Shown piece after piece: positions 55,060 to 57,030 of a stretch of DNA of 64,000 bases (position 1 is its first letter; each line of letters begins with the position of its first letter). The DNA comes from Phycisphaerales bacterium (GTDB lineage: Bacteria; Planctomycetota; Phycisphaerae; Phycisphaerales; UBA1924), in assembly GCA_965212225.1 (NCBI GenBank), contig OZ243106.1:2891374-2955373 (forward strand), given 5' to 3'. Made by a program: the position numbers and the translations under genes. Below the pieces are notes generated by a model that worked only from the letters and a program-made list of their open reading frames with translations, had not been told where the DNA came from and ran no database searches.

Positions 55060-57030
55060 TTACTCACGCCCCGCGAAGCCCAGCGCGTCATCCAGCCAGT
55101 CATCGCCCTTGAGTACCTCGCGCCGGCGCGAATAGGCAATCGCCTCAGCCCGGCGCTGGGCCGATCGCTGCACCAGCGTGACCAACCGCTGGCCCGCCCC
55201 GCTGCGAGCCAGTTTCGCCAGCACCGTACGCAGGCGCGGGAAGAAGCGGCGGGCCAGTTCGTCGTCCAGACTCGAAAAGATCACCACTTCACCCGGATCG
55301 CCCTGACGCCCGCATCGCCCGAAAAGCTGGCGATCGATCCGCGCCGAAAGTGCTCGCCCGGTGGCGATGACGCACAGCCCGCCGCGCTCGACACTCTCGG
55401 GCGCGAGCCGGATGTCCGTGCCGCGACCGGCCATGTTGGTCGCGACGGTGACGCGCCCCGGCTCGCCCGCCCGCGCAACGATCGACGCTTCCTCCTCGTG
55501 GCGCACCGCGTTGAGCACTTGGTGCTCGACGCCCCGCTCCCGAAGCAGCACGCTCAGTCGCTCGCTCTCAGCAACGCTCGACGAACCGATCAGGACCGGC
55601 TGGCCGGCCGAAGCGCGGCGGGCGGCTTCGGCGGCGGTCGCCTCATCGCGCTCGATTGCGCCGGTAAACGCGCGGTCCTTCACCACGCGCCGGCGCGAGG
55701 GCCGGTGCGTCGGCATCGGGACCACCGGCGAGCGGTAGATCCGCACGAACTCGCGGCGCGATTCGAGCGCGGTGCCGGACATGCCCGCAAGGTACGGGTA
55801 CATGCGGAAGAACCGCTGGAAACTGATCCGCGCAACCGTCCGCTTGGCGCTGCGCACCTCCAGCCGCTCCTTGGCCTCGACCGCCTGGTGCATGCCGTCG
55901 CGCCATGTCCGATCGGGCATCGTCCGTCCGGTACTCTCGTCGACGATGACCACCGCGCCGTCGCGGACGATGTAGTGCTGGTCGCGCGTGTACAGGTGCT
56001 CGGCGCTCAGGGCTTGCCGGATCATCGCGTCCCGGTCACGCGGCAGCCGCGCTCCCAGCGCGCCACCCGAGGCAAGGCGATCGATCTCGCCGTTCGCGCG
56101 GGCAAGGAGCCGGATCTCTCGGTGCGCGCGATCGACGCTGAAGTGTTCCCCCTCCGTCAGTTCGAGCGCGATCTGACGGGCCTGCTCGTAACTCTCTGCC
56201 CCGGAGGCCGAGCCGTCATCGGCGGAGATCAGCAGCGGCGTGACGGCGTCGTCGATGAGCACGAAGTCGGCCTCATCCACGATCGCGCAGTGCAGGCCCC
56301 GCTGCAGCGGCTGGGCGACCGCGCGGGGACCGGCGATGAGCACGCGCAGAGCATGCGAACCGACGGCGCGGACCTCCCCGAGCGCAAGGCGGTCGCGCAG
56401 GAAGTCCGCGGCGAGTTCGCGGCTGGTCGAGTAGGTGACATCGGCCGAGTAGGCACGCCGGCGATCATCGGTTCCTGATTCGCCGGTGATGGCTTCGACG
56501 CCGAACCCCAGTCGCTCCAGACACGGCCGGGTCCAGTCAGCGTCGCGCGAGGCGAGGTAGTCGTTCGCCGTCACGACGTGGCAGCCTTTCCGCGCCGCGC
56601 CGAGCAGCGGAGACGCCAGCAGCGCGCTGAGCGTCTTGCCCTCACCCGTGGCCATCTCGACCACGCAGCCGTCGACCATCGCCAGCGCCGCCGCGACCTG
56701 CTCGCGGTGCGCCAGCAGGCCGGTTGTGCGCCGGGCGACTTCGGTCACGAGCGCGAGCGCGGCGACCCGCTCTTCTACCGGTGCGTCGGCGATGCGAGCG
56801 GTCAGTGTCGACCGGGCGCGCGTGTCGAGGTCGGCGTCGCTCAGATGTGCCATCGCCTCGTGCTCGCGGAGCACGCGCTCGCCGAGCGCGAGGTAGCGAC
56901 GGGTCCGCGGCAAGCGGCTGCGCACGATCGCGCCCGCTTCACGCGCGAGAAAATCCAGTCCCTCCGGCTCGCGAACCGGCTCGATGGGCGATCCCAATGC
57001 CCGCCAGGTGGCATCCATCGCGCGGGTCAT
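55060..57030 (-). CDS. SecA-like DEAD-motor ATPase lacking the canonical SecA C-terminal third
   Basis: [10 protein letters not shown] (Walker A), [33 protein letters not shown] and [12 protein letters not shown] are near-canonical SecA NBD1/NBD2 motifs. Start ATG at 57030 overlaps the upstream stop (ATGA at 57027..57030). Upstream 158 codons of ORF 55060..57504 are rejected. The protein ends about 90 aa after the GRQGDPG motif. Confidence 0.85.
   Translation of the reverse strand: [656 protein letters not shown]

Follow-up and report, generated by a model that had tools for sequence, protein, structure and literature searches.

A SecA-like motor without the SecY-engaging C-terminal module and its protease- and adaptor-type operon partners in a Phycisphaerales genome

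Introduction

SecA is viewed as a motor dedicated to the SecYEG channel. Here we describe a gene for a shortened SecA-like ATPase in a 64,000-nucleotide (nt) stretch of a Phycisphaerales bacterium genome (contig OZ243106.1, positions 2,891,374 to 2,955,373 of the forward strand), together with the two genes that precede it in an operon; the whole stretch is called the window below, and coordinates refer to it unless another locus is named. The closest described counterparts are the secondary proteins with a SecA_DEAD domain reported by Kamneva, Poudel and Ward (PLoS One 2015, PMC4452313), which lack all or nearly all of the SecA_SW domain. These form a clade apart from the canonical SecA of the same genomes, to which they are always additional, and their gene neighbours encode GAF/HlyD, Peptidase_M50/HlyD and HlyD/biotin-lipoyl proteins, sometimes with an outer-membrane factor (OEP). 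It was proposed that the SecA_DEAD protein replaces the ATP-binding cassette (ABC) ATPase of a type-I-like system, that the M50 protein may provide the membrane component, and that components of the system may be encoded elsewhere in the genome (PMC4452313). No experimental follow-up on this family was found in the literature searched. The family and its type I secretion system (T1SS)-like context, defined computationally, are thus already known. The finding made on the window rediscovers a family published in 2015, and its value lies in confirmation and refinement.

Accessory SecA2 proteins act through SecYEG or SecY2. For canonical SecA, the elements of the polypeptide clamp have been defined (PMC9926265), and engineered E. 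coli fragments ending at about N609-N668 were found to have high ATPase activity, with translocation requiring the protein up to about N829-831 (PMC5456053). The role of an intramembrane leader peptidase fused to an RRE domain has been described for the daptides (bioRxiv 10.1101/2023.03.08.531785).

The SecA-like protein ends within the scaffold helix

The gene and the features of its product are as follows.

55060..57030, minus strand: SecA-like ATPase, 656 amino acids (aa), from the open reading frame (ORF), Pfam and an AlphaFold2 (AF2) model
56632..56646, minus strand: Walker A motif GEGKT, aa 129-133, invariant in 41 family members
56266..56277, minus strand: Walker B/DEAD motif, D252 E253 A254 D255, invariant in 41 family members
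55876..56196, minus strand: preprotein cross-linking domain (PPXD), aa 279-385, from Pfam SecA_PP_bind, the family alignment and the alignment with canonical SecA
55231..55695, minus strand: second nucleotide-binding domain (NBD2), aa 446-600, with invariant TNMAGRGTD and RxDxQLxGRxxRQG motifs
55081..55200, minus strand: single C-terminal helix, aa 611-650, from the AF2 model and alignments

The ORF comprises 656 codons and a stop. A mechanical ORF list gives a longest frame of 814 aa here, which was taken not to be the gene: the shorter start was chosen because its ATG at 57030 overlaps the TGA of the upstream gene as ATGA and because the closest relatives are exactly 656 aa long. An exact-sequence lookup of the protein returned no record, the nearest relative being 96-97% identical. 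A preliminary description, made from the DNA letters, had placed a SecA homologue with both motor domains at this position, and the ORF, Pfam, phmmer and the AF2 model all agree with it. The peptides that it quoted are present in the product (a 37-residue peptide at aa 352-388, a 10-residue peptide at aa 571-580 and a 24-residue peptide), but the protein ends 76 residues after the second of these and not about 90, as had been estimated.

Pfam identifies SecA_DEAD (2e-79), SecA_PP_bind (3e-27) and P-loop_SecA (2e-47) in the protein and finds no match to SecA_SW. A 12-residue loop of the PPXD, largely invariant in the family, aligns with the 'PP loop' of the canonical SecA clamp. The alignments show a complete motor, with Walker A/B and arginine-finger motifs, and a polypeptide clamp, made up of the PPXD loop together with a pair of connecting beta-strands, that is kept.

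The position of the C-terminus was established with several comparisons. In phmmer searches of PDB sequences, the protein covers residues 55-650 of the 871 residues of T. maritima SecA and residues 62-603 of the 841 of B. subtilis SecA. When it is aligned by MAFFT with an enterobacterial SecA of 901 aa and a Bacillus-type SecA of 838 aa, its last residues fall at approximately position 655 of the enterobacterial sequence, which is within the long scaffold helix and just past the conserved YDDV motif (GDDW here). The C-terminal helix corresponds to about the first two thirds of that scaffold helix and is followed by a family-specific tail, LGFAGxE. The AF2 model, built with 41 family sequences (mean pLDDT 86.2, pTM 0.85), contains short helices and one 40-residue helix (aa 611-650) beyond NBD2 and nothing more. 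As the protein stops after about two thirds of the scaffold helix, it is without the SecY-entering two-helix finger, the wing domain and the SecB/zinc tail. This confirms that the protein keeps both motor domains and the PPXD but has no helical wing, two-helix finger or C-terminal linker/zinc site. The truncation that had been proposed is upheld by full-length alignment and structure prediction against both SecA and SecA2, and a divergent form of the wing and finger is excluded because the protein leaves no room for them.

At E ~1e-45, Foldseek searches with the AF2 model retrieve nothing but structures of SecA and SecA2. The model superposes best on 5eul_A and 6itc_A (query-based TM-score, TMq, 0.80; root-mean-square deviation ~3.5 Å), both SecY-bound, substrate-engaged forms with a closed clamp, as compared with a TMq of ~0.67 for free SecA. 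Some database names would instead make the protein a nucleic-acid helicase. It does have the double RecA-like motor of superfamily 2 (SF2), with weak Pfam DEAD and Helicase_C matches (E ~0.005-0.01) and distant Foldseek matches to RecQ, XPD and DinG (TMq 0.3-0.4). Helicases are, however, reached at E values of 1e-8 as opposed to ~1e-45 for SecA structures, the protein carries the SecA-specific PPXD insert and clamp residues, which are invariant, and the genomic neighbours encode membrane and periplasmic proteins; a helicase is highly improbable.

The canonical SecA models of NCBIfam score well under their cutoffs (NF009538, 523 against 814 bits; TIGR00963, 522 against 800), as do the SecA2 models (375-452 bits against cutoffs of 725-1100). 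These scores also bear on whether the protein could be an accessory SecA2-type motor that serves the housekeeping SecYEG with special substrates. Its identity of 35-40% to SecA and SecA2 structures over the motor and PPXD would be consistent with such a role, as would the retention of part of the SecY-contacting surface (the PPXD and the first part of the scaffold helix) and the 2015 phylogeny, which puts the clade beside actinobacterial SecA2 (PMC4452313). However, the protein has no two-helix finger or wing, the matched SecA2 structures are ~780 aa long and the SecA2 models 762-776 positions, and E. coli SecA fragments of the size seen here do not translocate (PMC5456053). In addition, its start codon overlaps the stop of a protease/adaptor gene, and secY is distant. 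The preliminary description had noted a housekeeping secY at 3727..5154; this is a true SecY (Pfam SecY, 2e-104) that lies ~50 kb off, on the same (minus) strand as the SecA-like gene. We regard a SecA2-type role as quite improbable.

A conserved family of short SecA proteins

Relatives were searched in a collection of 5.8 billion proteins and the best 120 matches were taken. Apart from one 375-aa fragment, these are 640-724 aa long and have the same three Pfam domains, none of them with SecA_SW, at 45-96% identity to the window protein. Most derive from metagenome-assembled genomes or isolates of Phycisphaerae and other Planctomycetota, including Mucisphaera and strain ZRK34. The family comprises at least hundreds of sequence clusters, and its function is testable because it is found in cultured bacteria that are in part tractable (Phycisphaera mikurensis, Algisphaera agarilytica, Methylobacterium extorquens). 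Across the 41 aligned members, GEGKT, DEAD (D252-D255), TNMAGRGTD and RxDxQLxGRxxRQG are invariant, and the clamp-equivalent segments TPLLIS, ARISFQ and the 12-residue PPXD loop are invariant or nearly so. A conserved C-terminus, DDWLDxxLGFAGxE, extends to the stop codon.

A neighbour-joining tree of 90 SecA-type sequences (604 shared columns) places the window protein among 19 short proteins that form a clade with a bootstrap support of 100/100, which includes sequences from Opitutaceae, Burkholderiales and Gammaproteobacteria. The other 71 sequences, nearly all full-length SecAs and planctomycete ones among them, fall outside it. Comparison with a 97%-identical relative (locus L082) gives a dN/dS of 0.13 over the entire gene, and the last 60 codons alone give 0.12.

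A product ~250 aa shorter than typical SecA, in a 64-kb window that contains no second secA, might suggest a truncated pseudogene, an assembly artefact or the decayed sole secA of the genome, a possibility that the preliminary description had raised against its own reading. The uniform length and domain content of the relatives argue otherwise, as do the C-terminal motif conserved up to the stop, the low dN/dS that persists over the last 60 codons, and the separate clade. The 2015 survey, moreover, found such proteins always beside a canonical SecA (PMC4452313). The probability of decay or artefact is practically negligible: the SecA-like gene is a real, conserved feature and represents a natural, ancient truncation under purifying selection.

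Two regions distinguish the family from canonical SecA within the retained part. There is an N-terminal extension of ~35 residues (aa 1-42, ~56905-57030) with conserved W9, R10, P22, G24 and D26, and an insert of ~20 residues in NBD1 (aa 217-240, ~56311-56382) that is modelled at lower confidence. Both are candidate docking elements for partner proteins.

Family members carry the NCBI labels 'prepilin peptidase' (several), 'DEAD/DEAH box helicase' and 'helicase-related protein'. These names appear to be propagated misannotations, since they clash with the domain content.

A further group of short SecA-like proteins (633-707 aa), set on a long branch, was observed in Pirellulaceae and Planctomycetaceae, outside the clade with full bootstrap support. 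Its members include L011 10001-11611, L013 353-2167 and L033 1759-3447, and in L033 a homologue of the protease-type partner described below (26% identity) lies ~2.3 kb downstream of the short SecA-like gene. The group could be a separate branch of the same system, or one that has diverged strongly.

An RRE-like, site-2-protease-like adaptor precedes the motor gene

The SecA-like gene is the third and last of three minus-strand genes with overlapping start and stop codons. The two genes before it are as follows.

59213..61132, minus strand: GAF domain, single transmembrane segment and membrane-fusion protein, 639 aa, first gene of the operon (Pfam, NCBIfam); the GAF adaptor
57027..59213, minus strand: RRE-like, site-2-protease (S2P)-like and membrane-fusion partner, ~728 aa (Pfam, NCBIfam, alignment, AF2, Foldseek); the protease-adaptor

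The GAF adaptor consists of a cytoplasmic GAF domain, one transmembrane segment and an RND/HlyD-type membrane-fusion domain. The stop of its gene overlaps the ATG of the next gene by 1 nt, and the start of the protease-adaptor gene is likely this ATG at 59213. The protease-adaptor has a cytoplasmic PqqD/RRE-like domain (aa 44-104), a polytopic S2P-like domain and a periplasmic MacA/MexA-like membrane-fusion domain (aa ~460-705). Its single-sequence Pfam matches (PqqD, Peptidase_M50 and HlyD) are weak, and PqqD was found in 30 of 36 homologues. The NCBIfam model of the daptide RRE-fused intramembrane metalloprotease, NF041824, matches at 2e-43 with 148.8 bits, as against an equivalog cutoff of 300. 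All 36 aligned sequences share H212, E213 and H216 of the HExxH motif (212-216) as well as N316, N318, P319 and D324. The latter residues belong to NxNPLxxxDG at 316-325, which is the NxxPxxxxDG motif of site-2 proteases. Three parts can be told apart in the AF2 model of the protease-adaptor (pLDDT 83.6): a beta3-alpha3 domain at the N-terminus, a polytopic domain made of helices and, at the C-terminus, a lipoyl/beta-barrel/alpha-hairpin domain, for which Foldseek retrieves MacA, MexA, AcrA and EmrA.

A split SecA, in which a neighbour supplies the C-terminal module, was considered and is ruled out: when the GAF-adaptor and protease-adaptor alignments were compared by hhalign with the C-terminal regions of 64 canonical SecAs, the probabilities were 0.1% and 0.2%, respectively.

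Gene order is conserved across distant lineages

The operon was compared with a Mucisphaera locus (L001), loci from a genome scan (L002-L008 and L058), close relatives (L082-L084) and loci of complete genomes (L085, CP050848.1; L086, CP070692.1; and L087). The order GAF adaptor, protease-adaptor, SecA-like gene is found in L001-L008, L058 and L082-L087 and recurs in Planctomycetota, Verrucomicrobiota and Proteobacteria. Among the genome-scan matches listed with an upstream flank, the protease-adaptor gene lies directly upstream in all short-clade loci (9/9), as it does in L082-L087; among the genome-scan matches listed, it lies near none of the full-length SecA loci (0). These matches, taken up by canonical SecAs of other genomes, gave gene order but no pairing of a short with a canonical secA in one genome. 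The ATGA overlap with the SecA-like start is repeated in L001 and L082-L084. These data show that the linkage of the SecA-like gene to the RRE/S2P/adaptor and GAF-adaptor genes is obligate. They also support the suggestion that this motor probably has a partner different from that of canonical SecA, the ATGA overlap joining it to the RRE/S2P-like/membrane-fusion gene and the pairing being confined to short-clade loci.

Seven loci (L001, L002, L004, L007, L008, L086 and L087) have a third, small adaptor gene. The most complete version among these loci is that of L086, a deltaproteobacterial chromosome, with the order small adaptor, GAF adaptor, protease-adaptor, SecA-like gene and, directly after the latter, a 648-aa OmpA + OEP (TolC-like) fusion (L086 12170-14116). 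No ABC transporter is annotated in the neighbourhoods of L001, L082-L084 or L085-L087.

Small DUF3467 proteins (111-122 aa) adjoin the operon in three distant loci: at 14294-14629 in L086, after the OmpA + OEP gene, and just upstream of the GAF adaptor at 5376-5744 in L087 and ~5404-5712 in L008. None is encoded in the window, and for DUF3467 we found no PDB relative and no literature. They could be an accessory chaperone or a substrate. In L085, the operon is followed by genes for an extracytoplasmic function (ECF)-type sigma factor, a small protein of no known family and a PDZ protein.

Proposed function

We consider it reasonably probable that the SecA-like protein is the ATPase of a SecY-independent, envelope-spanning processing and export machine that resembles a T1SS or tripartite efflux system and has no ABC transporter. 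The partner shares the architecture of RRE-fused leader peptidases, which suggests leader-bearing peptides or proteins as the putative substrates. A more specific version can be put forward tentatively: a distinct secretion machine, independent of SecY, in which the SecA clamp motor drives a leader-bearing polypeptide through or alongside the S2P-like domain, the leader being cut in transit, with exit via a TolC-like channel. The RRE-like domain would capture the unfolded leader-bearing peptide or protein, and the SecA-like clamp would spend ATP on feeding the polypeptide into the membrane domain. The leader would then be cut off at the HExxH site, a step that in peptidase-containing ABC exporters falls to the C39 peptidase. 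The adaptor paralogues, two here and three elsewhere, would bridge to a TolC-like outer-membrane channel, and the GAF domain could gate activity on a cytoplasmic ligand.

Several observations weigh against this proposal. The small third adaptor and the outer-membrane factor are absent from the window, and the annotation of the near-identical L082 agrees: the window operon encodes two membrane-fusion domains with no OEP gene nearby, such a gene being adjacent in L086 alone. An all-vs-all comparison of ORFs of 20-150 aa from 15 loci returned antisense shadows of core genes only, and tblastn searches of related loci with every window ORF of 50 aa or more between 45 and 64 kb matched the three core genes only. 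The S2P-like domain is unproven as a translocation pore. The closed clamp of the AF2 model may simply stem from the training of the predictor and should not be over-read. The M. extorquens operon was mostly barely expressed in exponential growth (PMC4452313). Lastly, the sigma-related genes that stand beside the operon in two lineages would fit a signalling role equally well. A conserved precursor or substrate gene beside the operon is rejected by the two ORF comparisons.

The chief alternative is regulated intramembrane proteolysis. The motor would unfold or extract a regulator, either cytoplasmic or anchored in the membrane (for example an anti-sigma factor), for the S2P domain, with the GAF domain as sensor and a transcriptional output. 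S2P enzymes classically cleave anti-sigma factors, and the active site of the partner is intact and of S2P type. The first gene of the operon contributes a GAF sensor domain, and a small sigma-70-related gene lies just upstream in the window and its close relatives:

61257..61505, minus strand: sigma-70 region 4-only protein, 82 aa (Sigma70_r4, 1.5e-07)

The ECF-type sigma factor, small protein and PDZ protein genes after the operon in L085 fit this alternative too, as does the failure to find a gene for an exported substrate among the small ORFs of the 15 loci. However, the sigma-related neighbours are not kept across distant loci, and each locus encodes two to three membrane-fusion paralogues with MacA/MexA-like hairpins, which are hard to explain without an envelope-spanning conduit. 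The TolC-like gene that adjoins the operon in L086 also points away from proteolytic signalling, which we consider unlikely.

If the proposed export function is correct, the polypeptide clamp of SecA has been recruited to a second membrane machine, losing its SecY-engaging parts and gaining protease and adaptor partners in their place. The result would be a SecA-powered counterpart of the peptidase-containing ABC exporters. The link between the RRE-like domain and leader peptidases gives a concrete substrate class and makes the system more testable.

Flanking genes

Further features on the downstream side of the operon are as follows.

54131..55015, minus strand: membrane protein of 294 aa with ~9 hydrophobic segments, 44 nt downstream of the SecA-like gene
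53636-54022, minus strand: stand-alone TSCPD-domain protein, 128 aa (7.6e-15)
53585-53605, minus strand: best terminator-like hairpin of the region, after the TSCPD gene
52304-53410, minus strand: 368-aa protein with a DUF3466 match and weak, sub-threshold PEP-CTERM and HAF-repeat matches

The gene for the 294-aa protein is probably co-transcribed with the SecA-like gene. The protein has no Pfam, NCBIfam, PADLOC or PDB match; it is conserved in the close relatives L082-L084 (dN/dS 0.15) and has no homologue in the distant loci. It was rejected as a core component on the grounds of having no distant-locus homologue, no family and no PDB relative, and is taken as lineage-specific because it is conserved in close relatives alone. 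Conservation of the sigma-70 region 4 mini-protein is likewise limited to close relatives (L082-L084), and the protein could be a regulator specific to this lineage. No terminator-like hairpin was found between the SecA-like gene and the one at 53605..53585, which may mark the end of a transcription unit shared with the SecA-like operon. The DUF3466 gene, which lies downstream of the operon and keeps its synteny in L082 and L083, may encode a PEP-CTERM-anchored surface protein, an idea prompted by its weak PEP-CTERM and HAF-repeat matches. An anti-phage defence system was also considered and is ruled out, PADLOC giving no match for any of four proteins.

Comparison with described systems

The window operon corresponds to the family of Kamneva et al. 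in most respects. The motor has SecA_DEAD, PPXD and NBD2 with the wing/scaffold lost, its neighbours are of the GAF/HlyD and M50/HlyD types, and the clade spans several phyla, namely Planctomycetes, Verrucomicrobia and Proteobacteria. The gene order GAF, M50, SecA_DEAD is that of M. extorquens META1p2402-2400. In contrast to that family, the window has neither the fourth gene, for a small HlyD/biotin-lipoyl adaptor, nor an OEP gene, and adds the sigma-70 region 4 mini-protein and the 294-aa membrane protein. Phycisphaerae-type members, which dominate present databases, are not named in the main text of PMC4452313, nor does that paper report the PqqD/RRE domain, the invariant S2P motifs or the structural truncation boundary. 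New here, accordingly, are the truncation boundary, the residues of ATPase, clamp and protease that do not vary, the N-terminal extension and C-terminal tail peculiar to the family, and the RRE-protease link. To these can be added that start/stop overlaps are kept across loci, that the C-terminal module is not supplied in trans and that no conserved precursor gene neighbours the operon.

At 35-40% identity, the window protein matches canonical SecA (TIGR00963/NF009538) in NBD1, PPXD, NBD2, its ATPase motifs, the clamp and the initial part of the scaffold helix. It has no counterpart to what canonical SecA carries beyond this: the remainder of that helix, the wing, the two-helix finger (IRA1) and the C-terminal linker/zinc site. 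The SecA2 proteins of mycobacteria, Listeria, Bacillus and C. difficile (TIGR04221, NF012136, TIGR04397, TIGR03714; PDB 4uaq, 6sxh) are likewise a second SecA-type motor beside the housekeeping one. Their structures and models measure 762-786 aa or positions, as opposed to the 656 aa of the window protein, and no secY2 or asp genes are found near the SecA-like gene, whose neighbours are adaptor and protease genes. The nearest match in extent is provided by the engineered fragments N68/N609 to N668 (PDB 5k9t; PMC5456053), which have nearly the same boundary, the window protein being equivalent to ~N655, and which also keep the motor and PPXD. Those fragments are, however, laboratory truncations with deregulated, high ATPase activity and no translocation, whereas the window protein is natural and has conserved N- and C-terminal tails.

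On the side of the partners, the peptidase-containing ABC exporters, T1SS and MacAB-TolC resemble the system in their alpha-hairpin membrane-fusion proteins, a TolC-like factor (in L086), an integrated leader-type protease and a cytoplasmic ATPase. They differ in that the present system has no ABC transporter, its ATPase is of SecA type, its protease is of the S2P HExxH type and not a C39 cysteine peptidase, and an adaptor is fused to the inner-membrane component. As in the RRE-fused S2Ps daptide MpaP (NF041824) and YydH/LiaK (NF058609), an RRE-like domain in the protease-adaptor is followed by a polytopic domain with HExxH. Unlike MpaP, the protease-adaptor scores under the equivalog cutoff, has no precursor or modification genes found adjacent to it, and carries an additional C-terminal membrane-fusion domain.

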